Source of the DNA: a virus
Taxonomy: Duplodnaviria > Heunggongvirae > Uroviricota > Caudoviricetes
Direction: 5' to 3' (one strand)
IMG/VR virus record: IMGVR_UViG_3300032030_000021
Location: 1 to 29,121 of that record
Length of the DNA: 29,121 nt
Positions 3,845 to 28,307 of the stretch are shown here, piece by piece. The notes below the pieces were generated by a model that searched no databases, was not told the origin of the DNA, and saw only the letters and a list, made by a program, of their open reading frames with translations. Each line of letters starts with the position of its first letter. The first letter of the stretch is position 1. The position numbers were made by a program, and so were the translations under genes.

Positions 3845-4252
3845 ATGAAAACTCTACAAGAATCTATAATAGGAAGGCGGTCAAGTGATCGTACAATTAA
3901 TATAAATGATATAAAAACCGGAGATATTATAAAATTCCGAAGTGGTTTGTTGGCTATGGCTTACATCAATGAAGATAATTATTATTCCGGATTTTATTAT
4001 AATTTTACTAGTCCTAAGATGAAAAATACCACTAATTTAATAATGAGTAGTATGTTTTCAAAAGATTTAAAACATAAAATAGTTGACTATCTCGATATTA
4101 TAGATGTATACAGAGACCCTAATAATATTATAGGTAGCGACAAAAATTTTAAAGGATTTAAGGTCGGGCGGGATTATTCGGCTTTAGAAAAATCTAACCT
4201 TCAAAGACTGATAGATAATGGAGATTATGTAATAATATATGAAGAAAAATGA
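3845..4252 (+). CDS. ESIIGRK-leader family protein 1 (shared LxTGDIV...DIIDVY body)
   Basis: Starts MKTLQESIIGRRSS; body has IKTGDIIKFRSG...FSKDL...LDIIDVYRDP; GAATCTATAAT at 3860-3870. Confidence 0.85.
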   Translation: MKTLQESIIGRRSSDRTININDIKTGDIIKFRSGLLAMAYINEDNYYSGFYYNFTSPKMKNTTNLIMSSMFSKDLKHKIVDYLDIIDVYRDPNNIIGSDKNFKGFKVGRDYSALEKSNLQRLIDNGDYVIIYEEK

Positions 4253-4659
4253 AGACATTACAAGAATCTATAATAGGACGAAAAGGTGTCTCTTCCGGTA
4301 AAACAGGATTGTGGCAAATAGGTATGTTAGTTCCGGTATCTTCCAATAAAAAAGGCAAGATATATGACATATTGACACATATAACCGAGCAAAATAATCG
4401 TAGAGCTCGTAGAGCTAATTATGACAGCTATATAGATCAGTTATCCGATCTTTTGAAAATAAAATCCAATATTGCCGGTTTTAGAAACAAAGCGGAGGCT
4501 ATAGAAGTAGCTCAAAAATATGCAAAACAGATAAATCCGTCAGAATACAGATTTATAGGGATTACCAGAAGTTACGATGATGAACCGGGGTCTTTAGATT
4601 GGGATTATATATTAGGAATAGACAACAATCGTAAATTATTCATAATGCATAAAAATTAA
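4249..4659 (+). CDS. ESIIGRK-leader family protein 2 (unrelated body)
   Basis: Starts MKTLQESIIGRKG; ATGA overlap with the previous gene; GAATCTATAAT at 4264-4274. Confidence 0.85.
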   Translation: MKTLQESIIGRKGVSSGKTGLWQIGMLVPVSSNKKGKIYDILTHITEQNNRRARRANYDSYIDQLSDLLKIKSNIAGFRNKAEAIEVAQKYAKQINPSEYRFIGITRSYDDEPGSLDWDYILGIDNNRKLFIMHKN

Positions 4660-4669
4660 AAAAGAACAT

Positions 4670-4906
4670 ATGAAATCACTCAAAGAAAAAATCCAAGAAG
4701 AGATGGCTACCCCGGCTAATACTATGGGCGTTGGAAATCCGGTTCTCCCCGGTATGAATGGGGAAATAGGTTCCGGCGATACTTTTGTGGGTACGGGCAA
4801 GCCCAATGAGTCTAAAACTATTCCTATAAAGAAAATCAAACAGAAAAAAGGAAAAGGATATAAAAAATCCAAGAAATATCTTGAATGTCCCAAAGAAGAA
4901 GAATAA
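4670..4906 (+). CDS. Small protein with Gly/Pro-rich middle and Lys-rich tail; possible internal virion/DNA-binding protein
   Basis: MKSLKEKIQEE-MATPANTMGVGNP...KKIKQKKGKGYKKSKK; leader resembles the family leader. Confidence 0.7.
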   Translation: MKSLKEKIQEEMATPANTMGVGNPVLPGMNGEIGSGDTFVGTGKPNESKTIPIKKIKQKKGKGYKKSKKYLECPKEEE

Positions 4907-4963
4907 CCTATAAGAATTTATAAAATGAATTGATTATTTACAAAAAGAAAATATATAATACAT

Positions 4964-6613
4964 ATGAAAAGTCTATTTGAACATTTACAAGATTTTATGG
5001 AGGGTTGGCATACATCCTGGACCGAACCCGAATTCATGGGAGCTAAAACATCGACGGGTGTATATAACGATAAAGGTGAATATGCTACCTTTGTATTTAA
5101 TCCAAAAACTAAAAAATATGAGGCCACAGATCCAGATTCCGGTGATGTCTTATCTATGGATGATGTTATGCAATATTCATACGATACGGGATATGCTCCT
5201 ATGATTTGTCCTCCTAGCGTTGCAAATAACGATCCAAACAACAAATATAACCAATTGAATTTATCTCTCATGAATGTTGGGGGTAAAATCGAATCTTCCG
5301 AGAATGTAGATAAACTAAACGGTAAAAGCGCCGGTAGTTGGGCAGTGAATCCTCATATGACGGACGATGAACTTAAAGAATGGAAAAAGACGTCCCCGGA
5401 AGCATATAATGAAAATAGAGCCAATGTTCAGATGTATTGGAATTCGGTAGCTAGTCCGTCATCAAGAGAACACGGTGTGGCTGTAGTAGGTAAGGCCGGA
5501 TGGGGTAAATCCGAAATTATGACGTCGGTAGCCAGAGCGTCCGGATATGATGTCATCATTGTAAATTTGTCTATGGCAGCGTCTGAAGATGTATTGGGTA
5601 TTCCGGTTCCCGATAGAATGGCTTCCGGACAATTAAAAACCGAATATGCAGCTCCGGGTTGGTTGGCGTATGTAGCACAGCATCCTGATGATAAAATTTG
5701 CATTTTCTTTGACGAATTCAATCAAGCCAGCATGGATGTATTGGGCACTATTCAGAACTTCTTACTTACCAGAACCGTTAATGGGGTGGAATATAAGAAT
5801 ATTAAGTTTATGGCTGCCGGTAATGAAAAATCCGAGAACAGATCTTTAGTGAGAATGGAAGATCTGAACGCTATTCACCAAAGATTCAAAGTATGGCATT
5901 GGCTAACCGACTGGAATTACTATTTCGATTGGCATAGAAAAGAATTTGAAAAGAAACTTGGCAAGCCCCTTATGGATGAATTTGATGCCAATAAAGAATC
6001 TTTTGCTTCTCCTAGAAACTTAACTATACATATTTTCGGATGGATAGAAGAAGCTATTAATCATCTTAAAAAAGACCCTACTGATGTATCTATTTACACG
6101 GGAGACCGTATATTGACTATGTTCTATGACAATTCTATTGCAAAATGGAATGAGGATGAACATAAATTCGAGCAAATTTCAGATTCACAAGCCAAAAATC
6201 TTGCCGATCTAGCCGACTATGTAGCTAAATATATATATGATGCGGCTATCGGTGGTTCTACCAACACCGGATCCGGTCACACCTTCGGTTCCAAAAATCG
6301 TACTACTATGGAAAAATCGGATGTTCAAAGATTGAGAGATATGATGCAGGATGGATTTGTATTGGCGGAAGACGGTAATACATATGGTATATGTAAAGAA
6401 AACATCATGTATGTATTTGACGAATCTATATATCCGGCGGAAGTAGTAGAAAGAACTGTCGAAACACTGGAAAAAGTGGAAGGCATTAAATGGAAATATA
6501 CAACCAAAAAACAATGTAAGGCCGGATGCAAAAAAGAAGGAATTGCCGATAATATAGAAGTAGACTTGGATAAGTTTGTTGCCGATGATAAAGGTAATGT
6601 TACCGAAAAATAA
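4964..6613 (+). CDS. MoxR-type AAA+ ATPase
   Basis: Walker A GKAGWGKS, Walker B IFFDEFNQ, sensor-1 FMAAGN, Arg finger AIHQRF; adjacent to a vWA gene. Confidence 0.85.
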   Translation: MKSLFEHLQDFMEGWHTSWTEPEFMGAKTSTGVYNDKGEYATFVFNPKTKKYEATDPDSGDVLSMDDVMQYSYDTGYAPMICPPSVANNDPNNKYNQLNLSLMNVGGKIESSENVDKLNGKSAGSWAVNPHMTDDELKEWKKTSPEAYNENRANVQMYWNSVASPSSREHGVAVVGKAGWGKSEIMTSVARASGYDVIIVNLSMAASEDVLGIPVPDRMASGQLKTEYAAPGWLAYVAQHPDDKICIFFDEFNQASMDVLGTIQNFLLTRTVNGVEYKNIKFMAAGNEKSENRSLVRMEDLNAIHQRFKVWHWLTDWNYYFDWHRKEFEKKLGKPLMDEFDANKESFASPRNLTIHIFGWIEEAINHLKKDPTDVSIYTGDRILTMFYDNSIAKWNEDEHKFEQISDSQAKNLADLADYVAKYIYDAAIGGSTNTGSGHTFGSKNRTTMEKSDVQRLRDMMQDGFVLAEDGNTYGICKENIMYVFDESIYPAEVVERTVETLEKVEGIKWKYTTKKQCKAGCKKEGIADNIEVDLDKFVADDKGNVTEK

Positions 6614-6627
6614 ATTAAAATAAGCAT

Positions 6628-8730
6628 ATGGCATACGTTTCTATTGATAGAGACAGTCTGGCATTCACTAAGAATAGTATAAATAACGTAGATCCCGGTA
6701 ATCAAAAATTCTGCCGGGATCTCGTTGAGTTTATAGATATGTCTTGCATAACTTCGGATGATGACTTTTTCTATGATATGATGAAATTCATTCGATTTAT
6801 GAAGATGGACGGAATTGCCTGTACTGATACAAATGGTCTCATCATGATGAATCCTCCGCAGATGTTCAAATCTTTGCCGGAATGGGATTTTATTTATGAT
6901 CATGAATGCTTACATCAATTATGGGATACTTTTGGGGTAGCCGATAAGATTCAAGCTTCGGGTCAGCAATATGATCATGAACTTTTGAATATAGCCTCGG
7001 ATTGTGTTATTAATGACTATCTTGACTTTTATCGCGGCAAATCTATTCCCGGCGGTGCTAATGGAGGCCTAGTAACGCCGGAAAGTGTGAAAAATGACTT
7101 TGGTGTGGTATATGATAGATCCGTGGATACGCAGTATTCATTATACATAAAGATTATAAAGGCTTGTCAAGAAGATCCGAATCTAGCTAAAAAGATGAAG
7201 CAGAAATTCGGCAAGTTGCAGCCCAAGAAAGTAACTTACATGCCGCCCGGAAAAACCCCGCCCCCGCCTCCTCCTCAAAAGCATTCTCCGGATTTTATCA
7301 AGGGCTGGTGTGATGCTATCAATGATGTGTTTAAAGGAAAAGTAGATCCCCTTACTTATAGGCCAGCAGTTAACTTTATGAGTTTTGCCGCTAAATCTTC
7401 TAAGTCCGCTGATTGGCAAGCCGGTTATGATGCTGCTATGGAGCAGATCCGGATAGGCATGGAACAAGGCATCCAAGTTAGTAGTGGTTCCGGTGGTAGT
7501 GGTGGTGGAGATCTTCCTCAGATCCCGTGGGATATTCCTCCACAAGATCAAGACCAAATAGACAATATGGATGGTGATGAAGCTTCTGATACAGCAGACC
7601 AGGCCGCTCAAGAAGCCGAGCAGGCCGCTCGTGAAGCAGAAGCCGCTAACGATGGCTCCGAAAGCAAGCAAAACAATGCTAAAAAGGCTAAGGAAGCTGC
7701 CGGAAAGGCCAAAGAATTCGCCAGAAAAGCTCAAGATGCAGCTCGTCAAGGAGATGAAAAAGGAGCTAAAGAGGCAGCCAAAGAAGCGGTTACGGAGGCT
7801 CGTAAGGCCAAAGCGGCGGCGGAAGCCAACAAGCAATCCGGAAACAGAGGAAAGAATCCCGGCGGTGGTCCGAGTCAACGTGGTGACTATGAAGGATATG
7901 CCGAATTATCTTCAGAAGAGCTTTCCGAATTGGAAAAAGAGATGATCAACAACGGTACTATCCGAAGTGATACCAAAAAGACTTTAGGAAAATATTTAAG
8001 CCAGAGTGGTGGATTCATCGGCAATTTCCTCAAGAAGTGCAGAGTATCCAAAGATATGAAAGAATCCGGATTAGCTACCGATACAGGTCAAAAGAAAACC
8101 AACTGGGGCAAAAAAGTATTCGGTGAGATGAGTGATTATATTGCGGACATCGTTCAAGACCGTAAAATGCAATATAAACGCACATATGCTCGATTCAAAC
8201 GCGGCGCTATGGTTCCGGAGCCCGGAGAATTTTTATCCAAAGGCAAGCAATCTATAGAGGATAAATTCCCGATATCTATAGCATTCTGGGTGGATTGCTC
8301 AGGAAGTATGGGTAATGGCAACGGATCTGCTCTATACAATGCTTCCAAGTGTATGTATGCTCTTGCAGGCGCTATTGAAGATGAATGGTCCGATGAAGCA
8401 CTGATTTCCGAATTCGCCTTTGAGTATTATGCTTGGGATACTAGTATATATCCATTAAGAAAAGGTCAGATGCCATACAGTGGTGGAAGCACCATGTCTT
8501 TGGATGAATTAGTCAAAGGCATGATGGATCGTAAGAACACCAGCATGATCAATATTGTAATTACAGATGGTGGTGGTGGCTTGGGTTCCGCATTCGATAG
8601 ATATATCAAAGGAACCGGAAGTCTGGTAATATTCGTAACCAATTCACAGACACCGGATGTGAAACGCAAAGCGGAGAGCAGTAATGAACTTTCTTATGTG
8701 GAGGCTCCTTCCGATTTCAGTCTTAGTTAA
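6628..8730 (+). CDS. HExxH metallopeptidase-like domain plus vWA domain protein (DUF2201-like MoxR partner)
   Basis: IACTD...FIYDHECLH in the N-terminal part; low-complexity Pro/Gly/Ala/Lys linker; C-terminal MIDAS motif WVDCSGSM and IVITDG. Confidence 0.8.
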   Translation: MAYVSIDRDSLAFTKNSINNVDPGNQKFCRDLVEFIDMSCITSDDDFFYDMMKFIRFMKMDGIACTDTNGLIMMNPPQMFKSLPEWDFIYDHECLHQLWDTFGVADKIQASGQQYDHELLNIASDCVINDYLDFYRGKSIPGGANGGLVTPESVKNDFGVVYDRSVDTQYSLYIKIIKACQEDPNLAKKMKQKFGKLQPKKVTYMPPGKTPPPPPPQKHSPDFIKGWCDAINDVFKGKVDPLTYRPAVNFMSFAAKSSKSADWQAGYDAAMEQIRIGMEQGIQVSSGSGGSGGGDLPQIPWDIPPQDQDQIDNMDGDEASDTADQAAQEAEQAAREAEAANDGSESKQNNAKKAKEAAGKAKEFARKAQDAARQGDEKGAKEAAKEAVTEARKAKAAAEANKQSGNRGKNPGGGPSQRGDYEGYAELSSEELSELEKEMINNGTIRSDTKKTLGKYLSQSGGFIGNFLKKCRVSKDMKESGLATDTGQKKTNWGKKVFGEMSDYIADIVQDRKMQYKRTYARFKRGAMVPEPGEFLSKGKQSIEDKFPISIAFWVDCSGSMGNGNGSALYNASKCMYALAGAIEDEWSDEALISEFAFEYYAWDTSIYPLRKGQMPYSGGSTMSLDELVKGMMDRKNTSMINIVITDGGGGLGSAFDRYIKGTGSLVIFVTNSQTPDVKRKAESSNELSYVEAPSDFSLS

Positions 8731-8753
8731 TAGAAATTTTTAATATGTTTTAC

Positions 8754-8781
8754 AAAAGACCTTCCCCGAAGGTCTTTTTTT
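8754..8781 (+). terminator. Rho-independent terminator
   Basis: aaaagaccttc-cc-cgaaggtctttt inverted repeat plus T run after the vWA gene. Confidence 0.85.
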
Positions 8782-8833
8782 ATGCCTTAATGTTATGATG
8801 CCGGAGTATATATAAGATTATAATTTATCAGAT

Positions 8834-11800
8834 ATGGATAATACAAGTCTTAATGAAGCTCTGCAACAGTACCGGGTATTGCATACCCCCGTACATCTTT
8901 CTATATATCAATTCTATGCTAAGCAGAAATTTTCAAAACCTAATATTCTCGAATGTGAATCCGAAGAACGGGAATCGTGGAAAGAACGGGCTTCCACCCC
9001 ATCTATCACTATTATAGATTCTATCAAGGGAAAAGTAGGCCGTATCGCTACCCTTTATGATCTTCTGGAAACGCTGACCAATCCGGCGCGCGCTAACATC
9101 ATCAAAGAACGCCGGAGTGTCGTCTATAGCTCTTGTGATGGAATTCGTCCTATTGGTTCTAATGCTTATGACAAATGGAATGGGTTTCAAGTTATAGATA
9201 TGGATATCAAGAATCGGGAATATGCCGCTTATCTCAAAAAAGAACTTTTCAAGCGCCTGAAAAAGTATAACTGGTTCTTCGGAGTGGCCTTCTCTTCCTC
9301 CGGCAAAGGTCTGCATATATATACCAAGATACGCATACCGCAGTCCGATGATTCCCGAAAGAAGAAACTTCTATACTTAGTCAACTATCGTCATAAATAT
9401 TCCTTTGTCTATCTAGCCTGTATCAAGGTCTTAGAAGATATGAAGGATGAAGATGGTAACCCTATTTCTAAAGATATCCTGCTCAAATGGCTGGACATGG
9501 CTATGTTCAAACCTCAGCAGGGGGCTTTTATCGGATATGATCCGGCGCCGCTTATCAACTCAGGATTCTTCGAGGATTTTATATATGTGAACTTCGATAA
9601 TGTGGAAGATATGGGACACCCCGATGTGGACTGGGTCAGCTATCCGGATCTCAAGGAAATATTCAAACGTTGGGAATGGTTTGAAGATACGGAGGATAAA
9701 CCGGAGATAAATATCAAAAACGCTCCTGAACTGGAAGTAGATACTCACAATAAAGTCCACTACAAGCACTTTGAAAGATGGCGTCTGGCCAATACTCTGG
9801 TGAAACTTTATGGACTGGAACAGGGGTTCAAATACATGCGGATGATATGTTCTTCTAGTATATCTACCAAGGAAATTCAGGCGGACTGCACTACCGCCCA
9901 TACTCATGACAAGCCTATCGACGAATGGGCTATAAACCAGCTCAACAAATATCACGGATTTAATATTTCTATTGATAAGCCTCAAGTAGAAGAGCCGGGT
10001 ACCGACCGATTAGCTAACAACATAGAAGTCATCGATAATCCTACTTTGCTTAAAGAATCCGCTAATACAATAGTATTCAATATCACTAAAAACCAATACT
10101 TGGGAGACATCAAGCAGAAACTTATGGATTCTCTGGGTATGATCTCTCTGATAGACGCTGGTGCCGGTGTAGGCAAGACCGAGATGGTCAAATCCCTAGT
10201 AGATAAAGATGGCAAGCGCATACTCCTGGTAATGCCCTTCACATCCACCATCAAGTCTAAGATTGAAGGCAATCCCAACTGGGATTATTCTTACGGCAAC
10301 AAATCCCCTAAATGGGACAGGATGGGTATATGCATGACCATAGACAAGTTCTCGCGTCTGAACCTGATGGAAGTCAAGGAGATGGGTTTCGATTATATCT
10401 TCATAGACGAATCTCACCTCATGTTCCAATCGGAATATCGTCCGGTGATGGCTAAGGTCGTGGAGAAAATCCGGAACTCCGAGGTTCCGGTGGTGCTGAT
10501 GTCCGGCACTCCGGTGGGAGAAACCATTTTCTTTGAAGATCTTGTGCATCTGAAAGTCATTAAAGAAGATGTCCGGAAGAAGAATATCAATATCAGGATC
10601 ACCGGAAAACCTATTGATAATCTATGTTATATGTGTCAGGCCATGGCTCGGGATGTAGCTAACGGTGTCCGAGTTTTATTTCCAACAAACAAGGGATCTC
10701 TTTTCAAAGAACAGATCGAGGAATTAGTATCTTACTTCTTGAGAACGGAGTATTTCATATATGAACGGCCTATTGTCAATTACTACAAGAAATCCAATGT
10801 CGGAGAAGATTTCATGGATAAGGTCAATATCATGAAAACGGTGGATAAGACTAATATCTTGCTTTGTTCTACCTATCTCTCCGTGGGCGTGGATATTCTA
10901 GACCGTTTCGACTTCAATATATATTTCAATGACCTCTGGATGCCTCAGGAGATAGAGCAGTTCGCCAATCGTCTCCGATCCCATGATTTATTTATCAACA
11001 TCTATATCAATCGGAAAAATGCGGATGGAGATTCTTTGGATATCATAGACTATACTCCATGTAATTTCGCTCTGAACGAGGATGAAATCAAGAATGTGCA
11101 TTCCATTGTCCGGGCCTGTAACGCCATGATAGAGAGAAATCCTATAGAATATAGGTATAATTCCTTAGTAGCCAGCATTATAAGGGATAATAAATTTATA
11201 GAATATAATGATGTGGAGAACAAATATTACTTAAACGAGATTGCTTATAAGATCATTATGTTCGAACGGAAATACCGGATATATGTACAGCAGCTACCTG
11301 TGTTAATTAAAGGTATCCTTTCCTATGGATATCAATATAATGCTAAAGAACTAGGTGAGTTTAAAGGCAATATTTCGGAGGACTTTGTAGTAGATGACAG
11401 TATCAAGAATCTTTTGACCAGTGTAAAGCACAGCTATGAAGCAACTAATACGTCATTAGTGGCTGAACTGCTGGATATCATCACCGAAGACCGGCTTTAT
11501 ATCTTCAATGATGTCATGAAGGGTCTGTATGATATCAAGAAAGGACCGGACTGGAAGAATGATGAGTTGAATAAGATTATGATAGTCAAGAATATAGAAG
11601 TCTTCGAGAAAGTGGTGCCGTTGGTAGTGTCTTTTTCCAAGATGTTTGATATCTCGGATATCAAGGAGATGTTCGAACACTGCCGCCGAAACAATACCTA
11701 TTCCTTTGCGGCTATCCGAAGACTCAAATCCTTATGCAATCTTATATATAACTCCAAGCTGGATCGGCTGGATCTGCCTATAGACGAATTCATGAAAGAT

Positions 11801-12436: not shown

Positions 12437-12460
12437 AAAAGACCCCCCGGGTCTTTTTTT
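12437..12460 (+). terminator. Rho-independent terminator
   Basis: aaaagaccc-ccc-gggtctttt plus T run. Confidence 0.8.
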
Positions 12461-12515
12461 ATTCCTAAATATTTCGAGATCATAACATATATAATTATCA
12501 AATTATATACATAAT

Positions 12516-14907: not shown

Positions 14908-15189
14908 ATGAAAAGTCTTAGAGATTTTGTAACCGAATCCTCGGAAGAATATATAGAGGAAGTATTTGAACCGGTAATGGAGAGTAAAGTTACCGACGAA
15001 AAAAGCTTTCGTGAATGGGCCGAATCTAAATTCAAAGAAGTCTATGGTGATGAATATGATGAAAATAAAATGAAAAAAACTGTAGATGGATTGTTGAATG
15101 ACAATAAAAAACTGGTAGAAGATGGAGAATGGGGGGAGCTCGTCGGTATGATGAATAAATCATTTGCACCGGAATCCGATAAGGAATAA
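14908..15189 (+). CDS. Small acidic protein, possible prohead core/internal protein
   Basis: MKSLRDFVTES leader resembles the T4 CTS MKTYQEFIAE; further hydrophobic-x-E sites (YIEE, VMES); TTATTATT at 14876-14883. Confidence 0.65.
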   Translation: MKSLRDFVTESSEEYIEEVFEPVMESKVTDEKSFREWAESKFKEVYGDEYDENKMKKTVDGLLNDNKKLVEDGEWGELVGMMNKSFAPESDKE

Positions 15190-15239: not shown

Positions 15240-15618
15240 ATTTTATACGTTTGAATTTGTTATTTATTATAAGTTTCTGCAAAGCATTTTGACTAAAAAA
15301 TTCATCCTCGATTTCACTATATAAATAGTAATTGAGATATATACCTTCATCTCCATCATCTTCGTATCCCCATACTTCAATAATATTATATTTGCTTGAT
15401 CTTTTAGAACATAACTGATTATTGTATTCCGTAAGATATGGAGAAATTATTATATTGTGACTGGATCTGATTAATTTGCTATTTTGAAAATTATGCTTAT
15501 CAATGAGCACAAAATAGTAATTATTGTCGTTGAGTTTTACAACATATCCGGTTTTCAGATCATCTAGAAATACTCCGGACTTTTTCCTCCCTATTATAGA
15601 TTCATTAAAATACTTCAT
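15238..15618 (-). CDS. ESIIGRK-leader family protein 4 (shared body)
   Basis: MKYFNESIIGRKK...DLKTGYVVKLNDNNYYFVL...YNNQL...YNIIEVW; GAATCTATAAT on the minus strand at 15593-15603. Confidence 0.85.
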   Translation of the reverse strand: MKYFNESIIGRKKSGVFLDDLKTGYVVKLNDNNYYFVLIDKHNFQNSKLIRSSHNIIISPYLTEYNNQLCSKRSSKYNIIEVWGYEDDGDEGIYLNYYLYSEIEDEFFSQNALQKLIINNKFKRIK

Positions 15619-16195
15619 AAATTACATCATCTACTATTTTAGCTACCTTATCATCTCCTATTATATCATTAAGGAGTATGGGCTTTTTAGATTGGCTTGG
15701 GTTGGCTATATATAATGGATCTTTATATTCATACCCGTCTCTAACATGCGGAAATATAAATATAATAGTATTCCGAAATTCCGGTATAATACTCAATCCA
15801 TCGGATATGGCACTAGCCATAGCATCTATGTCCCATTTTGAATGAGTTCCCCATTCATCTCCTTGAAAAGTATATTCTACACATATGGCTTGTATATCAT
15901 TTCCGGATTCATTAAAGAATTGTCGAGGTACTGTTATCGGAAATATAGCACAATCTTTAGGGGCACACCAATTACCTAGAGTCCGAATAAGTTTGGAAGG
16001 ATTCTTATAAACTTTTTTAAATCCGGATCCGTTAGGATCATTTACGAGTCCAGCCCCATTATGATGAAATAAAGTATTTATTATCTTATAAGCTTTGTCT
16101 ATATTAAATTTTGCCGGATTGCTTGACATGTTCAATATAGAACTTAATGATGTAGTTCCTTTACGACCGATTATAGATTCTTTTATAGATCTCAT
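15605..16195 (-). CDS. ESIIGRK-leader family protein 3 (196 aa, unrelated body)
   Basis: MRSIKESIIGRKG; TAATG stop-start overlap with the RimK gene; motif at 16170-16180. Confidence 0.85.
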   Translation of the reverse strand: MRSIKESIIGRKGTTSLSSILNMSSNPAKFNIDKAYKIINTLFHHNGAGLVNDPNGSGFKKVYKNPSKLIRTLGNWCAPKDCAIFPITVPRQFFNESGNDIQAICVEYTFQGDEWGTHSKWDIDAMASAISDGLSIIPEFRNTIIFIFPHVRDGYEYKDPLYIANPSQSKKPILLNDIIGDDKVAKIVDDVIYEVF

Positions 16196-18811: not shown

Positions 18812-19199
18812 ATTGATTTATATTTATAGGTTTCACATTATCTATAATCCAATTTATATAATCTTTTAATTTTATAGGATTATATCGAACATCCCATAAA
18901 ATTTTTTTATTTCTAGGCTTGCGATAAACCCGGACTATGTCGAACTGTCTATTAATTCTATCAGAACCTGTCGCTTTCAGATTGTCATCCCAGCTGGTTG
19001 TATAATTAGCAGCAATATGAAATTCTCCAAAATTTCCAACGGAAGTAATAAAAGCATCGTGTTTATCATAATAATATTTTGGAGTAAAAACAAAAAATAT
19101 ACCAGCTACAGATTCTACTATATCGCCTCCTTGCAAGCTTTGTTTTGTGATCGAGATTGCTCCTTTTCTTCCTATTATAGATTCTAATAATGTTTTCAT
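18810..19199 (-). CDS. ESIIGRK-leader family protein 6 (shared body)
   Basis: MKTLLESIIGRKG...LQGGDIV...WDDNL...FDIVRVYRKP; ATGA overlap with the upstream paralog; motif at 19174-19184. Confidence 0.85.
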   Translation of the reverse strand: MKTLLESIIGRKGAISITKQSLQGGDIVESVAGIFFVFTPKYYYDKHDAFITSVGNFGEFHIAANYTTSWDDNLKATGSDRINRQFDIVRVYRKPRNKKILWDVRYNPIKLKDYINWIIDNVKPININQ

Positions 19200-19648
19200 C
19201 TTTCAAATATTTTAGTTACACCGGATTTGATCATATTACATATATTATCCTGTTGAATGGATTTTATTCCATTTCTTAACCATAAAGTTCCTGCGGGTGA
19301 CCGATATATAGTCAATGGGTTAGAATTAAACATTTTTTCCAGAGAAGGCTCTCCGTGGTAATAAAAATGATTATCAAATCTAGATAAATCTAATATAATT
19401 ACTTCAGTTAAACTGAATCCAAACACCAATATGCCTTCCGGGTAATAGTCCGTTGTCGGTATAGAATGAGAGGAGTTTGTTAAAACTTGAGAAAATTTAT
19501 TGACAAAAGAATTCAATTCACCGGGCAACCAAACAACTCCGAAAATATCCCTATTTTCAATCCAAAATATGTCGCCGGTCGATAGATTCGTTTTGCCTTG
19601 TTTAGTTATTCCCCTTCTTCCTATTATAGATTCTATTAGCGTCTTCAT
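19196..19648 (-). CDS. ESIIGRK-leader family protein 5 (shared body, divergent)
   Basis: MKTLIESIIGRRG...LSTGDIFW...FDNHF...LTIYRSP; ATGA overlap with the M15 gene; motif at 19623-19633. Confidence 0.85.
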   Translation of the reverse strand: MKTLIESIIGRRGITKQGKTNLSTGDIFWIENRDIFGVVWLPGELNSFVNKFSQVLTNSSHSIPTTDYYPEGILVFGFSLTEVIILDLSRFDNHFYYHGEPSLEKMFNSNPLTIYRSPAGTLWLRNGIKSIQQDNICNMIKSGVTKIFER

Positions 19649-20109: not shown

Positions 20110-20202
20110 ATTATCAAGATTTTGACAAAATAATAATCTTATTTCATTACAATCATTAAGATCTTCAAATATTCGATTATATATTATCAAAATTAAGAAA
20201 GT

Positions 20203-20790
20203 ATGAAAATTATTCTTGTAGGAGCACATGGTACCGGCAAAACAACATTAGCTAATATGTTGAGTGACTATTATAATTGGCCTGTTATTGAAAGTGCAAG
20301 CCGCGATATCAAGTCTCTGATGGATTCGGGTAAGATTAATATAGGAGAAAAAGATTATCATGAACTGATTACGGCTATTAATGTCAAGTTATGGAAAGAT
20401 ACGGACCGTGCTAGCGATAATACGAATTTCATATATGCCCGGACTATTATAGATAATATCGCTTATAGTGGTGATTTTGTAGGTATTAATGATCTTCATC
20501 ATTCCGGATTATATAACCAATTGACGACTGTAAATGGTCTTAATGCCTTCCGAAATGCTGCGATTGTCAGGGTTCCGATAGAATTCGATCCCGAAGATGA
20601 TGGTGTCCGATATACGGATCCGGAATATCAGAAAAAAATCTCCGATCGCCAGCAGTGTATTTTATCGGCATTGTGTTATGATGGAATTATCGATCACGAT
20701 GATATTGTAGTGGTTCACGGCACTCCCGAAGAAAGATGCAATCAGGTAATATCTTCATTATCTAAGTATATTAACCATATCGATATCTAA
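20203..20790 (+). CDS. P-loop NTPase / nucleotide-kinase-like protein (AAA_28/NadR-kinase type)
   Basis: MKIILVGAHGTGKTTL Walker A; YARTIIDNIAY; VPIEFDPEDDGVR lid-like motif. Confidence 0.75.
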   Translation: MKIILVGAHGTGKTTLANMLSDYYNWPVIESASRDIKSLMDSGKINIGEKDYHELITAINVKLWKDTDRASDNTNFIYARTIIDNIAYSGDFVGINDLHHSGLYNQLTTVNGLNAFRNAAIVRVPIEFDPEDDGVRYTDPEYQKKISDRQQCILSALCYDGIIDHDDIVVVHGTPEERCNQVISSLSKYINHIDI

Positions 20791-20991
20791 TCCGGGAGAA
20801 TTTGCTCCTATATGCAGTTTGCTTCCTTTTTCGGTATTTAGAATATATATAATTTCATTTTTATATAATTCATATCGATCTATTATCCCAGAAGCATCTA
20901 TCTTCATGCATTTTGTTGTCATGTGTACGTTCTTGCCGATGATCGAGTCGGCAAATTCAAGATCATTATACAAATTGTTGTTGTCCGGCAT
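20758..20991 (-). CDS. Hypothetical protein (77 aa)
   Basis: ATG start; divergent from the 21024 gene; 33-nt convergent overlap with the kinase gene. Confidence 0.6.
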   Translation of the reverse strand: MPDNNNLYNDLEFADSIIGKNVHMTTKCMKIDASGIIDRYELYKNEIIYILNTEKGSKLHIGANSPGLDIDMVNILR

Positions 20992-20992
20992 A

Positions 20993-21013
20993 TGATTATT
21001 TTTAAAATAATCA
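20993..21013. promoter_or_regulatory. 21-bp palindrome between divergent genes
   Basis: tgattatttt-t-aaaataatca; each arm contains TGATTATT. Confidence 0.5.
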
Positions 21014-21023
21014 ATATTTTTTT

Positions 21024-22175
21024 ATGGCAGTCCCAGCATCATATCATATATATCAAACCCCTGTTCATGCCGTGGGAAAAAATGTAATAGCCGGCGGTGT
21101 TATATTGGATAGAGTCATAACCGATGAAGGTTATAGATATGACTTTTTTAATAAAAGCCATAAAGTAACAGAATCGGGAACAGCTTGGATGTATGAATTA
21201 CCTCCGGAAAACGCGGAACCCGCTCATATTGTATTAGACGCGTGTGTATCCGAACTTCAACCCGACCCAAATGATCCGACAAAACGGATATTATATAGCC
21301 ATATGATATTAGATTTAGACTCTGGTGAGCCGTATAATATAAATACGATGATATCTAATATTGGAAACCATATCGATAGTCTTGATCCGGTTACATATTA
21401 TAATCGGAGCGCTAATCAGATTATCCAAGGTATAGATTCCGGAGATCGTATTCTATTTGCCGTATTGTATAATATGTATTATTACAGATTCGAACAATCT
21501 GATGAAGGTGGCTATGTTGAATCGTTCTGGCCATATCTGAGTTTTACTAGAATGGATGCGACAAGAATGTGGTATAGTGCACTGGCATACAGCGTAGAAC
21601 ACGGAAACCGGCAATACAAACCCGGATCTAGTGAATATATTACGGATTGGCCCGGATATACACCCGGATATGCCGATTATCATCCTTATTACTTTATGAG
21701 TCATCCCGGATTAGTGTTTGAATGCTTCCGCGAATGTCCGGAAGAGGATTATACTATCCGATCTCTCAATGGATTTGATAATCATGGCGAATATCATGTA
21801 AATGCGTCTAGATTGGCTAGCATACTTACAGGTAATCATTGGGGATTGCAGATATTTGCTGATGGTGCATCTCCGTCATATGAACATATTGCAAATATTT
21901 TAGAACAGCAATCGCTTATAAATAACTTTTCCAATCTGCAATGCCCATATGGAAGAATTGGCTGGCCGTTATTTGAATACGAGGCACAACTTAATGTATA
22001 TTCCTCGGATAGAACATTAATATCCCTAGAATGTCAGAATAATACTACTTGGATGGATCCGAATACCGGTACGGAATATCCTACTAATATCCTCTATGAT
22101 AATGAACCTATAGATACTCCTTTGAATTATCCGATATTTGTAGCGATTGCCGGACATGTTAACCGTAGATGGTAA
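21024..22175 (+). CDS. Hypothetical protein (383 aa, Tyr/Asn/Pro-rich)
   Basis: Long ORF with ATG and A/T-rich leader; no motif recognised. Confidence 0.8.
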   Translation: MAVPASYHIYQTPVHAVGKNVIAGGVILDRVITDEGYRYDFFNKSHKVTESGTAWMYELPPENAEPAHIVLDACVSELQPDPNDPTKRILYSHMILDLDSGEPYNINTMISNIGNHIDSLDPVTYYNRSANQIIQGIDSGDRILFAVLYNMYYYRFEQSDEGGYVESFWPYLSFTRMDATRMWYSALAYSVEHGNRQYKPGSSEYITDWPGYTPGYADYHPYYFMSHPGLVFECFRECPEEDYTIRSLNGFDNHGEYHVNASRLASILTGNHWGLQIFADGASPSYEHIANILEQQSLINNFSNLQCPYGRIGWPLFEYEAQLNVYSSDRTLISLECQNNTTWMDPNTGTEYPTNILYDNEPIDTPLNYPIFVAIAGHVNRRW

Positions 22176-22236
22176 TTTTATGCTTAATATTTAGAAATTC
22201 CGCTTATATAATATTGTAATTGGAATAACTAAAAAT

Positions 22237-22629
22237 ATGAAGCGTTTAATTTTAAAGATTAAGAAAAAGCTCTCTATCAACACCGGAGAAAAAATTTCTC
22301 GTTCCGAACGTTATACTACTATGGCAGCACTGGGTCTGATGCGAATTCCCGACACCGAACTCTTAATTCACCCGACCAAGGATCGTTATTATATTCATGC
22401 CGGAAATGATCAGTATCTGATAATTATCAATATTTATCCGGCCACAGTCACTTTGATTAACCATAAGCTTTCACACGATGTTAAGTATAGCAGAAGAGCT
22501 ATGGATTTTTTACAAAACAAGTTTTTGGAAGTAACTGAAAAACGAAGAGATAAATTTGAAAAAAAGTTTTTAGATAATACCGAAAATTCACTCAGATCCG
22601 TTGCTCTCAGCATAATGAATTTAAAGTGA
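22237..22629 (+). CDS. Hypothetical protein (130 aa); stop codon lies in the IS right end
   Basis: ATG with A-rich leader; ends AAG TGA, where GTGAA (22626-22630) is the IS terminus. Confidence 0.75.
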   Translation: MKRLILKIKKKLSINTGEKISRSERYTTMAALGLMRIPDTELLIHPTKDRYYIHAGNDQYLIIINIYPATVTLINHKLSHDVKYSRRAMDFLQNKFLEVTEKRRDKFEKKFLDNTENSLRSVALSIMNLK

Positions 22630-22760
22630 ACTACCCAGCCGCTAAAGGCGGCCGAGCTTCCCGTCTTTGAAGAGATCCTTGCATTTATCGTAAGAGATCT
22701 TCTTCCCGGGCTTTAAGTCGACGGTCCCCGCCGACTGTATAGCTTTATAGAACCCGATCA
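22606..22760 (-). ncRNA. Predicted TnpB omega/reRNA scaffold plus flanking guide (5' boundary approximate)
   Basis: TnpB reRNAs are known to overlap the tnpB 3' end and right end. The guide would be the flank after TTCAC: TTTAAATTCATTATGCTGAG. Confidence 0.5.
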
Positions 22761-23172
22761 TATTCTTTGCCGCATGCACGTCCCGGTCTCCGGTCTCGCC
22801 GCATTTCGGGCACACAAAGGTCCGTTGGGATAGATCCATCGCGGCATCGGTCCCACAGGACAGGCAGCGCTTCGTAGTCGGAAACCATTGGTCTAACACG
22901 AATACATTATCTTTTCTTCTCAGCTTAGCCTTGACCCTTCCGAGCACGGAATGCTGGACCGTCTTGGATAGATGCTCGTCTTCGCGCCATTCCCGGTGCC
23001 GGACCCGTGTAGCCTTACCGGCTTCGCTTATAGCTCTATTTTTGTCTAATCGACTCATATCTAAATAATAAGATCCGGATTAATATCGTTAATGTTTCTT
23101 ATATTTATATTAGTAGCCAATCTGTGTATCCATGCAGCTAAAGGCTACACGGTTTTACAGATTGAAATTATA
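22626..23172 (-). mobile_element. Non-autonomous IS200/IS605-family (IS1341-like) mini-element
   Basis: On the minus strand the right end reads ...GGCCGCCTTTAGCGGCTGGGTAGTTCAC. The left-end hairpin CAATCTGT...CCTTTAGC...ACAGATTG spans 23118-23164. A candidate TAM TTTAT lies at 23173-23177. No tnpA is present. Confidence 0.8.
22642..23058 (-). pseudogene. tnpB: tnpB with a large in-frame internal deletion
   Basis: Keeps QHSVLGRVKAKL, WFPTTKRCLSCG, FVCPKCG (Zn ribbon) and DRDVHAAKN (RuvC-III). Only 138 aa; RuvC-I Asp and RuvC-II Glu motifs are not visible. Confidence 0.8.
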
Positions 23173-23187
23173 ATAAATTTTTGATAT

Positions 23188-24552
23188 ATGAAGAAAATAG
23201 TAGTTTGTGGTTTAGGTTACGTAGGACTGGTGCATATTCTAGGGTGCTGGATAAGTGCTCGGGACAATGGTGCCCGAGATTATATGTTTATAGGATATGA
23301 TCCGGATGAAGAGAAAATCAATAAAATCATGTCTGGTGAGTGTCCGATTGTAGAACCAGGTCTGCCCGAGGTCTTGAATGATGCCTTGAAGGATCCGGAT
23401 CATTTTAAAGTATGCTCCGATCCGGCCTGTTGGTACTGCGACCCGGATGTAGATATGGTATTTTGCTGTGTCGGAACCCCAATGTCCGATGATGGATCCG
23501 CTGATTTAAGATATGTATATGAACTGGCGGAGAGTTTCGGGGCACATATCGGAAATCTTCAAGCCACATTTGTGAATAAATCTACGTGTCCGGTTGGAAC
23601 CTGTAATGTATTGTATAATATTATTATTGGAAATTTAAATTTCGGTAATTCAAACATCGGAGTACTTTCCAATCCGGAATTTCTTGCGGAAGGAACGGCA
23701 TTAAACGACATGCTATCTCCGGATAGAATTGTTATCGGAGGTATAACGGATCATGTCGAGAGATTGAGAGAATTTTATAAGTCTATTGGCCTCATGCCAG
23801 ATGAAGCTGACTGCGTGGCCACTACATGGGAGAATGCCGAATTAATTAAATACGCTTCCAATGCCATGTTAGCCACACGTATTAGCTTTGTCAATGACTT
23901 AGCCGATTTATGTGAAAAAGTTGGAGCCGATGTAAGAATCGTGACCGAATGTATGGGTATGGACCATAGGATCGGACAGGCATTTTTAAAGCCGGGTCCC
24001 GGATATGGGGGGTCGTGTTTTCCAAAAGATACTAATGCATTATTGCATCAAGGTATATCTAATGGCGTAGAAATGAGGGTGGTAGATGCCGTTATTAGAA
24101 GTAATACATATCACCGGGAAAAGGCTTCCAATATAGTATCGGAACTTATCGGATATGTCGGACCTAAGGGTATTGGAAAAATCGGAGTCATCGGAGCCGC
24201 ATTTAAGTCCGGTACCGGAGACTTGCGGGAATCTCCGGCGGTAGATCTTCTCCGATATCTGGCGAATTTGGGTAAGGAAATTATGGTATTTGATGAGAAT
24301 GTTTCCGAAAAGGAGTTATCTTATGCCGTACCATGCGATCATCCGGAGCGCTTGATAATGAGCCCGTTAGAAGATTTAAAAGATTGTAATTTGGTAATAA
24401 TCATGAATCCGGAAAACATTGTATGGCCGGAAGCCGGAACTCATGATATCCGAATAGTATTAGATATGAGATGTTGTGTGTCCGATTCGACCATTAAAGA
24501 TTTTGAAAATCAAGGAATTATATATATCGGACACGGACGTGGTAATATATAA
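23188..24552 (+). CDS. ugd: UDP-glucose 6-dehydrogenase (UDP-glucose/GDP-mannose dehydrogenase family)
   Basis: GLGYVG, CVGTP, NKSTCPVGT, SNPEFLAEG, AELIKYASNAMLATRISFVN, GPGYGGSCFPKD (catalytic Cys) and AFKSGTGDLRESP. Confidence 0.92.
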   Translation: MKKIVVCGLGYVGLVHILGCWISARDNGARDYMFIGYDPDEEKINKIMSGECPIVEPGLPEVLNDALKDPDHFKVCSDPACWYCDPDVDMVFCCVGTPMSDDGSADLRYVYELAESFGAHIGNLQATFVNKSTCPVGTCNVLYNIIIGNLNFGNSNIGVLSNPEFLAEGTALNDMLSPDRIVIGGITDHVERLREFYKSIGLMPDEADCVATTWENAELIKYASNAMLATRISFVNDLADLCEKVGADVRIVTECMGMDHRIGQAFLKPGPGYGGSCFPKDTNALLHQGISNGVEMRVVDAVIRSNTYHREKASNIVSELIGYVGPKGIGKIGVIGAAFKSGTGDLRESPAVDLLRYLANLGKEIMVFDENVSEKELSYAVPCDHPERLIMSPLEDLKDCNLVIIMNPENIVWPEAGTHDIRIVLDMRCCVSDSTIKDFENQGIIYIGHGRGNI

Positions 24553-24627
24553 TATCTTTTATAGTGCACAATACTCGTAATATTATAAAGATTTATAAAA
24601 AACTTTTTGTATCAGATATATAAGAAC

Positions 24628-26370
24628 ATGATAAAAGTTTGTATTGCCGAAAAGCCTAATGTAGCAAAATCTATTGCTAAAGTTCTTGGTGTTCGAGATT
24701 ATAAAGACGGATATATAGAAGGAGATAGTCCATTGCTTGAGTGTCATGTGTTTGTAACCTGGACTTTTGGACACCTTTGTGAATTGAAAACCCCCGGAGA
24801 ATATAATAGGAGATGGAGTAAATGGAATCTCAGAAATCTTCCCATGATTCCTTCAAGTTTTGGAATTAGGGTTAAAGACGATGAAGGTATCAAAAAGCAA
24901 TTTAATACCATCAAAATGCTATTAGAACAATGTGATGAATGTATTAATTGCGGAGATGCAGGACAAGAAGGCGAATTAATTCAGAGATATGTTCTTCAAC
25001 AGGCCGGGTTCAAGAAGCCGGTCAAGCGCCTTTGGATTTCATCTCTAACGGATGAAGCTATTAAAAACGGTTTCCGAAACCTGGATAATGCATCTAAATA
25101 TGATAATGTTTATCGCGCAGCTCTTTGTAGAAGCATCGGGGATTGGTTAGTAGGAATGAATGCAACGCAATACCAGACTCTTATATCCGGTAATCGAAGC
25201 CTATTATACTCCGTAGGCAGGGTCCAGACTCCAACACTTGCGCTTATAGTGAATCGGCAAAAAGAAATAGATGCCTTTGTACCGGAAAAATATTATGATT
25301 TTACAGCCATTTGCCAAAAGGTAAAATTTGAAGGAGCCAATACATTTAAAGATAAAAAACAAGCCGAAGAGGTCTTCAAGAAAATCAAAGACCTTCCAAT
25401 GGTCATTTCCAAAGTGGAGCATAAGAAGCAATCCGAGAAGCCACCACAACTATTTGATCTCACCTCCTTACAGGTGGAAATGAATAAGAAAAACGGATGG
25501 AGTGCCGACGATACTCTTAATACCTTGCAATCTCTCTATGAAAAACAGCTGGTAACCTACCCACGTGTAGATACTCGTTATCTTCCGGAAGACATGTATG
25601 AAGAATGCAAGCGGATTCTTTCCGGACTCATCTCCGATTATGACTGCGAAGGCGATATGCCCGACGAAATTAAGAAATCAAGAGATATTTTTGATAATAA
25701 GAAAATTACGGACCACCACGCCATTATCCCGACCGGCAAATGGGATAGTAATATCACCTCGGAAGAGCATACCCTATATGATGTAATAGCCCGGAGATTA
25801 TTGTGTGCGTTTGCCCGACCCTTTCTTACAGCTAATACATATGTTGAGAGTACAGTTGGTGATGAGAAATTCAAAGCATCCGGGCGCACTGTTTTAGACA
25901 TGGGCTGGAGAGAGATAGCTCGTATCAAATCCGAAGATGAACCAATGCCGGAATTTGTAAAAGGCAAAGAATACAATCAGTCCATGAAGCTTAATTCTCA
26001 TACCACCAAAGCACCGGCATATTACACGGAAGCAACCTTATTAAGAGCTATGGAAACAGCCGGCAAGATGGTTACGGATGAAGAAATGGCGGAAGCTATG
26101 AAGGAAAACGGCATAGGCAGGCCATCTACAAGAGCCGCTATTCTAGAATTGCTTTTCAAAAGAAAATATTTAATTCGAGATGGCAAGTCTATCAAACCCA
26201 CCGCTACAGGCATATACCTGATTGATCATATCAAGGATCCCATTCTAAAATCTCCGGAACTCACGGGACAATGGGAGTGCAAGCTCCGCAAGATAGAAAG
26301 GGGTGAATATGACCCGAAAAAATTCAAAGAAGAACTTTATGATTTTGTTAAAGATATCGTAAAAAAATAA
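24628..26370 (+). CDS. topB: Type IA DNA topoisomerase (topoisomerase III, Bacteroidales-type)
   Basis: IAEKP, VTWTFGHL, NCGDAGQEGELI, RLWISSLT, SVGRVQTPTL, LVTYPRVD (catalytic Tyr), DHHAIIPT and GIGRPSTRA. ATG 24628 is preferred to the listed TTG 24607. Confidence 0.92.
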   Translation: MIKVCIAEKPNVAKSIAKVLGVRDYKDGYIEGDSPLLECHVFVTWTFGHLCELKTPGEYNRRWSKWNLRNLPMIPSSFGIRVKDDEGIKKQFNTIKMLLEQCDECINCGDAGQEGELIQRYVLQQAGFKKPVKRLWISSLTDEAIKNGFRNLDNASKYDNVYRAALCRSIGDWLVGMNATQYQTLISGNRSLLYSVGRVQTPTLALIVNRQKEIDAFVPEKYYDFTAICQKVKFEGANTFKDKKQAEEVFKKIKDLPMVISKVEHKKQSEKPPQLFDLTSLQVEMNKKNGWSADDTLNTLQSLYEKQLVTYPRVDTRYLPEDMYEECKRILSGLISDYDCEGDMPDEIKKSRDIFDNKKITDHHAIIPTGKWDSNITSEEHTLYDVIARRLLCAFARPFLTANTYVESTVGDEKFKASGRTVLDMGWREIARIKSEDEPMPEFVKGKEYNQSMKLNSHTTKAPAYYTEATLLRAMETAGKMVTDEEMAEAMKENGIGRPSTRAAILELLFKRKYLIRDGKSIKPTATGIYLIDHIKDPILKSPELTGQWECKLRKIERGEYDPKKFKEELYDFVKDIVKK

Positions 26371-26585
26371 TGATAATATTCGCTTCTATGATATTTTTAT
26401 TAACTTTAGCATGCATTTTCATGGTCCTGTATAGATACATATATGATTGCAATCGGACCAAAATCAATCCGGATACACAAGTTAATCGGAACACACCCGG
26501 CAATTTGATCTGGAAGCTTTTAGGAAGCTTCATTCCCATACTGCATTTGTATATTATATACTACGAAGCAAAAAATTTACGTTAA
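26370..26585 (+). CDS. Small membrane protein (71 aa, two hydrophobic segments)
   Basis: TAATG overlap with topB; MIIFASMIFLLTLACIFMVLY and LIWKLLGSFIPILHLYIIY. Confidence 0.7.
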   Translation: MIIFASMIFLLTLACIFMVLYRYIYDCNRTKINPDTQVNRNTPGNLIWKLLGSFIPILHLYIIYYEAKNLR

Positions 26586-26626
26586 ACTGCGGCGAGTTCG
26601 CAAATCAATTTTTTTCATGATTATGG

Positions 26627-26656
26627 GAAAGGCATTCTAATGAGTGCCTTTCTTTT
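26627..26656 (+). terminator. Rho-independent terminator
   Basis: gaaaggcattc-taat-gagtgcctttc plus tttt (one G-U pair). Confidence 0.75.
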
Positions 26657-26684
26657 ATTATTTTTGGTAGAATATACAAATAAG

Positions 26685-27401
26685 ATGGATAATTTTAGTG
26701 AACATGTCGGTTTTCAAGTATGGGATGGACATAATAATCTGATCGGCGGAGACGGCAGGATAGTATGCAAACGCAATGTTTGTGCCGTAAATCCAGATGC
26801 TATAGGTTCTCATTATGATATGATTAGTAAATTTATAGAAGAACAATATGACCCAAAATTCCATATATTACTAGCCTCCGGAGATAATATCACGGACCTG
26901 CAAAAATCCATGTCTCTAAAGCAATGTAAGGGCATAGGCGAAATCTTTGTGTTGAAACACAAGAATCTTTATACTACTCCGATAGTTAATTATAACATGC
27001 TAGATATTGTCCGGGAAGATCTTCGGCCAGTGTATCTTCATTGGGACATGATCAAAGATCCGGAATGGGAAAGACTTGAAAAATTCCTGAGAGGGCATCG
27101 GAGTCCCGTTGTATTATGTCATTTAGGTATCAATAAGGAATTCAACAATCAGAAATCCGTTATCAAAAAATTCAAAAAACTCCAAAAAGAATATGATAAT
27201 CTCTGGGGAGAGATCTCTTGGGATGCACTGGATTGGGTATGCAAATATCCGGAAAGTATAAAAGGGATGGACGAAGATCGGATATTCACCGCCTCCGATC
27301 TAGCTCCGTTGGATAATCAAAATAAACGGGAACTGCAAATAGCTTCCATGTCGGGATTGATCAGCAGCTCTAATAACATCAAAAAACTATTCGGAATATG
27401 A
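26685..27401 (+). CDS. Amidohydrolase-superfamily (TIM-barrel metal-dependent hydrolase)-like protein
   Basis: WDGHNN (degenerate D-x-H-x-H), PVYLH, PVVLCHLG, NLWGEIS and DRIFTASD in the usual order. Start reassigned to ATG 26685 because the listed 26640 start lies inside the terminator. Confidence 0.6.
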   Translation: MDNFSEHVGFQVWDGHNNLIGGDGRIVCKRNVCAVNPDAIGSHYDMISKFIEEQYDPKFHILLASGDNITDLQKSMSLKQCKGIGEIFVLKHKNLYTTPIVNYNMLDIVREDLRPVYLHWDMIKDPEWERLEKFLRGHRSPVVLCHLGINKEFNNQKSVIKKFKKLQKEYDNLWGEISWDALDWVCKYPESIKGMDEDRIFTASDLAPLDNQNKRELQIASMSGLISSSNNIKKLFGI

Positions 27402-27832
27402 AAACACTAATTGAATCTATAATAGGGAGAAAATCATCCAATACACCGCTTGTCAATGCCAGAACAAGACTCAGACAGGGAGATATTGTTTATTTTGAGA
27501 AGTCAAATTTAGGCCCATACTTGGTAATTTTGGACAAAAACTTATATAAAAGAATCAGCCAAAGATCAACACCGAAAGATGAGGCTGAAAAAGACGGGTT
27601 TCTTGTACAGAGTCAATATAAATATGGGTATTATATGGTACCATTATCCGGATATGATAAAGATCTTCGATATAAATTAAATTCGGATTATGATATTACA
27701 ACGGTATTAAGAGGAAACGAAATATCGTCGGATGATATTGAAGATGTATGGGATTTTATTGATTGGTACCATTTAAGTAATCTCACCGATAAATTCAAAG
27801 TAGTATTTAAAGACGAAAAATGGATAAAATAA
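27398..27832 (+). CDS. ESIIGRK-leader family protein 7 (shared body)
   Basis: MKTLIESIIGRKS...LRQGDIVYF...YLVI...YDKDL...YDITTV; ATGA overlap; motif at 27413-27423. Confidence 0.85.
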   Translation: MKTLIESIIGRKSSNTPLVNARTRLRQGDIVYFEKSNLGPYLVILDKNLYKRISQRSTPKDEAEKDGFLVQSQYKYGYYMVPLSGYDKDLRYKLNSDYDITTVLRGNEISSDDIEDVWDFIDWYHLSNLTDKFKVVFKDEKWIK

Positions 27833-27839
27833 ATTTATA

Positions 27840-28307
27840 ATGAAAACATTAACCGAATCTATAATAGGGAGAAAAAGTGATGCGATAGAATGGCCCGTTC
27901 TAGATAAAATCCGGAATCAGGAATTTTCGGATTTGATTCCTTATAACATTGTCAAGGTAGACTATTCCGAACCACATGGATCTAAATATGGAATAATAGT
28001 TCCGGAAGACATTGCGTCAAAATTCTTTGGAGTCCAATATAGGGAATACAAGGGAAAATGCGGCTCCGTTTTATTTTATGATCCCGCAACTCATGGAGAA
28101 ATAGTTTTTGTCGCAATAGATCATTATAAAAAACAATTTCCAAGACCATTTATCAATCGGGTGGGATTTGAAATAATTGATATATGGGATGGATCTAAAG
28201 CTTGGCGGACATTTGAATATCGTCTTAAAACAGTTGAAGATTATGCAAAATTCCTAAGGTGGTCCGTTGATAAACCGGAAGAATTTGAAAGAATGTTAAA
28301 ACCGTAG
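27840..28307 (+). CDS. ESIIGRK-leader family protein 8 (shared body, divergent)
   Basis: MKTLTESIIGRKS...DLIPYNIVKV...FEIIDIW; motif at 27855-27865. Confidence 0.85.
   Translation: MKTLTESIIGRKSDAIEWPVLDKIRNQEFSDLIPYNIVKVDYSEPHGSKYGIIVPEDIASKFFGVQYREYKGKCGSVLFYDPATHGEIVFVAIDHYKKQFPRPFINRVGFEIIDIWDGSKAWRTFEYRLKTVEDYAKFLRWSVDKPEEFERMLKP

Follow-up and report, generated by a model that had tools for sequence, protein, structure and literature searches.

A nearly uniform 14-nt coding core in the shared leader of unrelated cassette genes of a T4-like phage

Why should eight genes of one phage, with unrelated bodies, begin with the same DNA as well as the same peptide? The question arises in a stretch of 29,121 nt (the window), which is the first 29 kb of the 130.5-kb virus record G000, itself 61% complete. 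An earlier note had listed an 11-mer, GAATCTATAAT, in eight genes of the window and had suggested that selection acts on the nucleotides besides the protein, the candidate roles being an internal promoter box, a translational-repressor site co-regulating the family, or a short stretch of homology by which bodies behind the leader are swapped. The note gave position and strand correctly for all eight exact copies; each begins 15 nt past the A of the ATG and is read in frame as E-S-I-(I), and the note's listing of synonymous variation in the flanking codons was right. It had overlooked a ninth exact copy (Table 1), which is treated as chance, because it lies on the opposite strand (antisense) within a helicase-like gene and is altered in the sister phage G003, whose orthologue has a changed first base and a changed following base.

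The window is part of a T4-like phage fragment; G000 contains matches to a gp21-type prohead protease (PF03420, E=5e-13) and a gp23-type capsid protein (PF07068, E=1e-21). The best sequencing runs containing the window sequence are sheep gut samples, with one of them a possible source of the record, runs with small shares (X4-X18) being left out as habitat evidence, and the region is also present in RNA libraries, of a kind that cannot show transcript starts or level. Relatives were gathered with codon-degenerate patterns and orthologue look-ups, and leader copies were defined by amino acids only, giving 221 distinct copies. Two pairs of sister phages, G000 with G003 and G001 with G002, are each ~78% identical, and all four records are fragmentary (26-61% complete). 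In G000, 39 open-reading frames carry the leader M[KR]x[LI]xESIIG[RK][KR] or a close form. The bodies behind the leaders fall into ~130 distinct clusters among 213 copies, with no significant match in Pfam, PHROGs or Atlas searches, and a literature search found no published description of an ESIIG leader.

Table 1. Leader genes of the window and the stray 11-mer, with their counterparts in relatives
Feature	Coordinates	Strand	Core and context	Relatives
Leader gene, 135 aa	3845..4252	+	First of tandem pair; 14-nt core 3860-3873	G003 has same upstream DNA and same body
Leader gene, 136 aa	4249..4659	+	Core 4264-4277; ATGA overlap with preceding gene 3845..4252	In G003, upstream DNA and closest body at different leaders ~770 nt apart
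Leader gene, 126 aa	15238..15618	-	Core 15590-15603	Both flanks common to L080
Leader gene, 196 aa	15605..16195	-	Variant core 16167-16180, second Ile ATC	G003 inserts two more cassettes (808 nt) between upstream DNA and body, joined at the leader
Leader gene, 129 aa	18810..19199	-	Core 19171-19184	Body directly after M15 peptidase gene in G003, L048, L086 and L088
Leader gene, 150 aa	19196..19648	-	Core 19620-19633	19196-19648 is a 449-nt leader-to-leader cassette, present in G000, L080 and L087, absent from G003, L048, L086 and L088
Leader gene, 144 aa	27398..27832	+	Core 27413-27426	G003 has same upstream DNA, unrelated body
Leader gene, 155 aa	27840..28307	+	Core 27855-27868	G003 has same body, unrelated upstream DNA
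Stray exact 11-mer	9011..9021	-	Antisense within helicase-like gene; outside leader system	

Silent-site conservation and the leader peptide

The 11-mer had been called invariant, which is true of the eight window leaders, while genome-wide it is exact in 31/39 leaders and among relatives in 192/221; the G000 leaders that depart from it use TCC, TCG, GAG, ATT or ATC. If the copies were independent, the chance of eight exact copies out of eight would be ~7e-8 under family codon use and ~5e-6 with context-adjusted frequencies. Nor is the 11-mer the full unit: the second Ile codon is fixed as well, and the conserved stretch is really the 14-nt core GAATCTATAATAGG, which is perfect in 185 of the 221 copies and nearly restricted to leaders (89/93 matches). 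The core holds an interrupted palindrome, CTAT-A-ATAG.

The comparison with codon usage in relatives that the note had proposed places the E, S and I codons far above background. Across the 221 copies the core codons are GAA in 215/221, TCT in 205/221, ATA in 213/221 and ATA again in 211/220, against 0.79, 0.25, 0.54 and 0.54 for the same codons in the bodies of the same genes, that is, four silent sites 93-97% fixed where codon use would give 25-79%. Outside the core, Lys2 (AAA 0.79 vs 0.78 background), Ile4 (ATA 0.59, background 0.54) and the third base of the Gly codon directly after the core (A 0.51, G 0.32, C 0.11, T 0.06; body A 0.43) are near background, while some other leader codons are moderately skewed. 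The conservation of the DNA stops within 3 nt of the core edge, although the amino acids that follow, G-R/K-K/R-G, are still conserved. The fixation persists when a single copy is kept for each of 51 flank-linked clusters, and codons 5-11 of other genes do not have it (GAA 0.81, TCT 0.22, ATA 0.54). The nucleotide-level constraint on the core, which the note had proposed to act besides that on the protein, is real.

The constraint is soft, since 13/99 pairs of orthologues that share a body have different Ser codons in the core, compared with 30% in bodies. Variants occur at all four core silent sites even inside active arrays, and variant cores are found in 7/13 solitary genes vs 13/97 arrayed ones (p=0.002; the counts are small and include orthologue pairs). 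Genes with a degenerate tag use TCT in 7/14 and ATA in 9/14; the solitary leader gene at G000 63519, a stable gene on which silent sites might have been compared, gave no orthologues. Just 3' of the core, 7 nt vary more than their surroundings, scoring 0.71 between close orthologues where the flanks score 0.89-0.92 (7 pairs). Between orthologues, leader positions +14 to +30 from the core start change more quickly than the flanks on both sides, and small in-frame indels are frequent in the first codons after the core.

The peptide has a possible counterpart in T4. The prohead protease gp21 follows an (I/L)xE cleavage rule, and the present leader has [LI]-x-E at residues 4-6 where the 10-residue T4 tag ends at E10. 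The two tags start similarly, MKTYQEFIAE in T4 and MKTLQESIIG here, and MKTxQExI is common to the present tag and to T4 ipII/ipIII. In T4, a capsid targeting sequence brings internal proteins into the prohead, where gp21 removes the tag by cleavage after Glu (PMC5694885, PMC7411985), and Ip1-3 are restriction-enzyme inhibitors (PMC12373910). From this resemblance we infer that the present leader is a T4-type capsid-targeting-like tag with a putative packaging role. The note had thought that the peptide could even be partly a by-product of the DNA, which gains no support from the conserved G-R/K-K/R-G stretch, where silent sites are largely free, or from distant phages, which retain MKxLxES with all kinds of Ser codon. 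Five such records, three of them with a gp23 match, have 2-21 genes each starting MKxLxES[IL][LF]D, with Ser encoded by AGC, AGT, TCC, TCA, TCG or TCT, and these tag-bearing phages are without the 14-mer.

Several further N-terminal families were seen. The distant records (G004-G008; L097-L131) contain the tag families MKxLYESILDD and MKSLxESLFD, whose own codons are partly fixed (ATA TTA; AGY; TTT). Three window genes (4670-4906, 4964-6613 and 14908-15189) start MKSL[KFR][ED], maybe weaker forms of the ESIIG tag; they encode two small proteins, the second acidic and head-core-like, and one AAA ATPase, whose sequence beyond residue 13 differs from the G003 orthologue. A second shared-leader family occupies G000 115481-128159, where several genes start MK[VI]QIRxxVFETNSS.

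Cassette exchange at the leader

The note had proposed looking for inter-strain breakpoints at the leader, and we found them between sister phages. Among leader-gene pairs (G000/G003, G001/G002), 18 share upstream DNA only, 17 share the body only and 7 share both. A different body stands behind orthologous upstream DNA in 16/25 leader genes compared with 8/73 other genes (p=6e-7), which supports the swapping of bodies behind the leader by short homology. Window examples are listed in Table 1, and the absence of the 449-nt cassette involves two different exchange points within the leader among the relatives. Informative sites map some exchanges to the junction of codons 2 and 3, others to the core or immediately behind it, and the furthest to about codon 13; this is the pattern expected when homology directs the exchange, and not when a recombinase crosses over at one fixed point. 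Any cause of leader conservation would bring breakpoints into the leader, and alone they are no proof of why it is uniform.

Searches of G000-G003 for RecA, Rad51, Sak4-like AAA_24 and Rad52 families gave no match, and none was obtained in these records, which are 26-61% complete, for reverse transcriptase or for tyrosine or serine recombinases (integrase, resolvase), the controls of the recombinase searches having matched; RegA and UvsX-C searches had no match anywhere, their controls likewise being without one. Joints in contigs of runs X1-X4 were considered as circles or rearrangements and rejected as mapping artefacts, having 20-40-nt sides at repeated leaders.

Unusual leader structures accompany the regular arrays. 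At L060 9522-9570, two tandem leaders stand in frame 33 nt apart, apparently from an imprecise deletion or duplication. Three unusual leader ORFs occur in G000 (66817-67641, 63519-63977 and 102309-102641): one is a fusion of two leader cassettes whose internal leader has an ATG at -12, and two are solitary genes in which ESIIG is shifted from the start, with two silent core changes each. An IS605 TnpB-like gene (413 aa; G000 109048-110289, minus strand) holds the full 14-mer in frame, as does the L085 copy and not that of L086; this was discarded as a mechanism, the core being lost in 1/3 copies. A shortened GC-rich ORF in the window (22642-23058, minus strand) has its first 22 residues and upstream DNA as in the TnpB-like gene. 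In the 240-kb phage G007, a reverse transcriptase gene (121723-122427, minus strand) lies near the major capsid gene.

Candidate causes of the uniform core

We think it rather probable that the 14-nt core is a homology seed inside a capsid-targeting-like tag under selection as protein, and that the turnover of cassettes keeps this seed uniform. Two constraints would then overlap, one on the protein as a tag and one on the DNA as exchange homology. By means of the tag, small proteins that are otherwise unrelated would enter the prohead, for injection at infection, with a gp21-type protease perhaps cleaving after [LI]-x-E6, and tag function would fix the amino acids ESIIG. The leader is the sole sequence common to unrelated cassettes, so their gain, loss and replacement proceed, as the breakpoints show, via homology-directed exchange between leaders, and the moving unit comprises a leader, its body, stop, spacer and ATG, as far as the leader that follows. 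Should a run of ~13-14 identical bases be required for exchange, the leaders that carry the majority sequence would recombine and spread more often, an advantage that would act over the longest run fixed at the amino acid level, and silent variants would appear and be continually purged. The choice of frozen codons may be due partly to accident and partly to a preference for AT-rich, weakly structured sequence close to the start codon. For two leaders of unrelated genes, the median length of the longest perfect match is 14 nt with the core vs 8 with background codons.

We modelled this in a toy population whose codons started at random within the amino-acid limits observed, under AT-biased mutation and with exchange requiring a perfect run; the codons converged on the ESIIG stretch. 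When the seed was hard and 13 or 14 long, all four core sites became fixed and the Gly third base stayed free in 5/5 runs each, with r ~0.9 to the data. Success was lower elsewhere, at 0/5 without a seed, 2/5 with a seed of 12, 1/5 with a seed of 16 and 1/5 with a soft threshold. The frozen codons varied between runs and sometimes matched the real core. The model demonstrates that homology alone can suffice under the parameters chosen, which is no proof. In T4, DNA is amplified and deleted via 6-10-bp microhomologies (PMC9391042).

Generic homology is set against a more specific possibility, that the 14-mer is recognised by an unrecognised recombinase, nickase or endonuclease which starts cassette insertion or excision at an integron-like, in-frame site, where repair tracts of varied length would account for the spread exchange points. 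The right edge, sharp within 3 nt while amino-acid conservation goes on, the interrupted palindrome, the drop to 0.71 just 3' of the core and the very high swap rate of leader genes would all suit such a factor, and it would give each incoming injected-protein cassette its start codon and packaging tag automatically. Yet the sharp edge arises from generic homology in the toy model too, exchange points vary, all four silent sites vary inside active arrays, distant phages bear the tag without the 14-mer, and neither a recombinase of the tyrosine or serine type nor a reverse transcriptase was found in the four fragments G000-G003; we regard this factor as unlikely. We also doubt that the core is primarily an mRNA element at +16 to +29, whether a repressor or small-RNA site co-regulating the family or an unstructured start region, with recombination as a side effect. 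Almost every copy has the core at the same distance from the ATG, an ATGA overlap couples 90/213 copies, and among 108 synonymous recodings only one gives a weaker mRNA structure than the native codons (107th of 108). However, TCA is the weakest-folding option and occurs in 0/221 copies, silent sites closer to the start are free, and the core decays in solitary genes. RNA folding revealed no shared structure among leaders, no convincing non-coding near-copy of the core was found that could be an antisense seed, and the RegA search was without a match, though its controls were as well. Weak structure as the sole cause was rejected, being a real bias that is too small and does not select TCT, and it may have biased which codons froze; a translational-repressor role for the core gains no positive support and is unlikely.

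The promoter reading takes the TATAAT as an internal -10 box driving the next gene of the array. The hexamer is indeed perfect, and the 11-mer agrees at 9/11 positions with GATTATATAAT, one version of the commonest intergenic motif of the phage, which consists of TTATATA with a CTTAA-like box ~20 nt upstream. Against this, the CTTAA box typical of that motif is missing at leaders, promoter scans for the sigma70-type -35 hexamer, which should stand 16-18 nt upstream, gave a best match with a mean of 2.1/6 vs 2.5/6 in control DNA, a TG extension of the -10 is present in 0/213 copies, and ATCTATAAT occurs in 0/386 upstream regions of other genes. The last genes of arrays, some facing a terminator, retain the core equally (41/45). 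With no -35, no TG and no intergenic occurrence, the internal promoter of the note is very improbable. Little credence can likewise be given to the absence of any constraint, with recent common descent and AT-rich codon bias making the core uniform: paralogues are not independent and the fixed codons are AT-rich and common, but codon choice is close to background in codons 2-4 and at silent sites just 3 nt from the core, a contrast that largely refutes it, and moreover the bodies behind the leaders are unrelated and the toy model without a seed yields no such profile.

Comparison with T4 internal proteins, PeSL cassettes and integrons

The homology-seed reading has close precedents. The ipI, ipII and ipIII genes of T4 and other T-even phages likewise combine a single conserved N-terminal tag with small bodies of diverse sequence (PMC3012670, PMC5694885, PMC7411985, PMC12373910), both phages have gp21/gp23-type head genes, and the tag DNA of T4 ipII/ipIII shares 47 identical nt including silent sites, like the uniform core here. 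The family is ~ten times larger here, with 39 genes in a 61%-complete genome against three in T4, and the predicted cut would come after residue 6 instead of 10, leaving SIIGRK on the product. Unlike the T4 ip genes, the present leaders share no upstream promoter or Shine-Dalgarno block, so that the homology lies wholly within the reading frame.

PeSL cassettes of RB49/phi1 and other T4-like phages show the same repeat-to-repeat insertion, deletion and replacement of accessory genes (PMC2839356, PMC4122927), their repeats driving gene gain and loss via circles with no known dedicated recombinase (PMC2839356). In both systems crossovers occur at varied points of the repeat, no dedicated recombinase has been identified, and the joins left by gene gain, loss or replacement lie within the repeat. 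The PeSL repeat is an intergenic promoter-terminator, whereas here it is a ~38-nt coding leader with a 14-nt perfect core; the leader was rejected as a PeSL proper, being coding, without a -35 (sigma70 promoter) and without a hairpin terminator. Mini-circles have been demonstrated for PeSLs, and the present system is known from contigs.

Membership of the integrons was also rejected. Integrons are arrays of single unrelated genes moving as units between short repeated sites, and the arrays here are similar in this respect, but no tyrosine recombinase was found in the G000-G003 fragments, there is no attC-like hairpin, the site lies inside the ORF and the exchange point is not fixed, exchanges ranging from codon 2 to ~13. 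The present case works like the T4 ip and PeSL systems, but with the repeat wholly in the reading frame.

One short stretch would be both protein address and swap site, with the incoming gene in frame, expressed and tagged, which offers a route for a large phage to maintain a fast-changing arsenal of probably injected proteins. The silent-site profile would provide an estimate (~13-14 nt) of the perfect match that exchange requires in nature, and it warns that fixed silent sites at repeated gene starts are no sure sign of a promoter or binding site. Used as a query, the core also gives easy access to ~130 uncharacterised proteins of gut phages that are candidates for anti-defence roles. A separate repeat of PeSL-like type occurs between genes, at window positions 8731-8833 and 12437-12515 and in many G000 intergenic regions: a recurrent terminator hairpin, AAGACC...GGTCTTTTT, is followed by the CTTAA-like box and then, ~20 nt on, by TTATATA, forming a PeSL-like terminator-promoter unit with non-sigma70 spacing.
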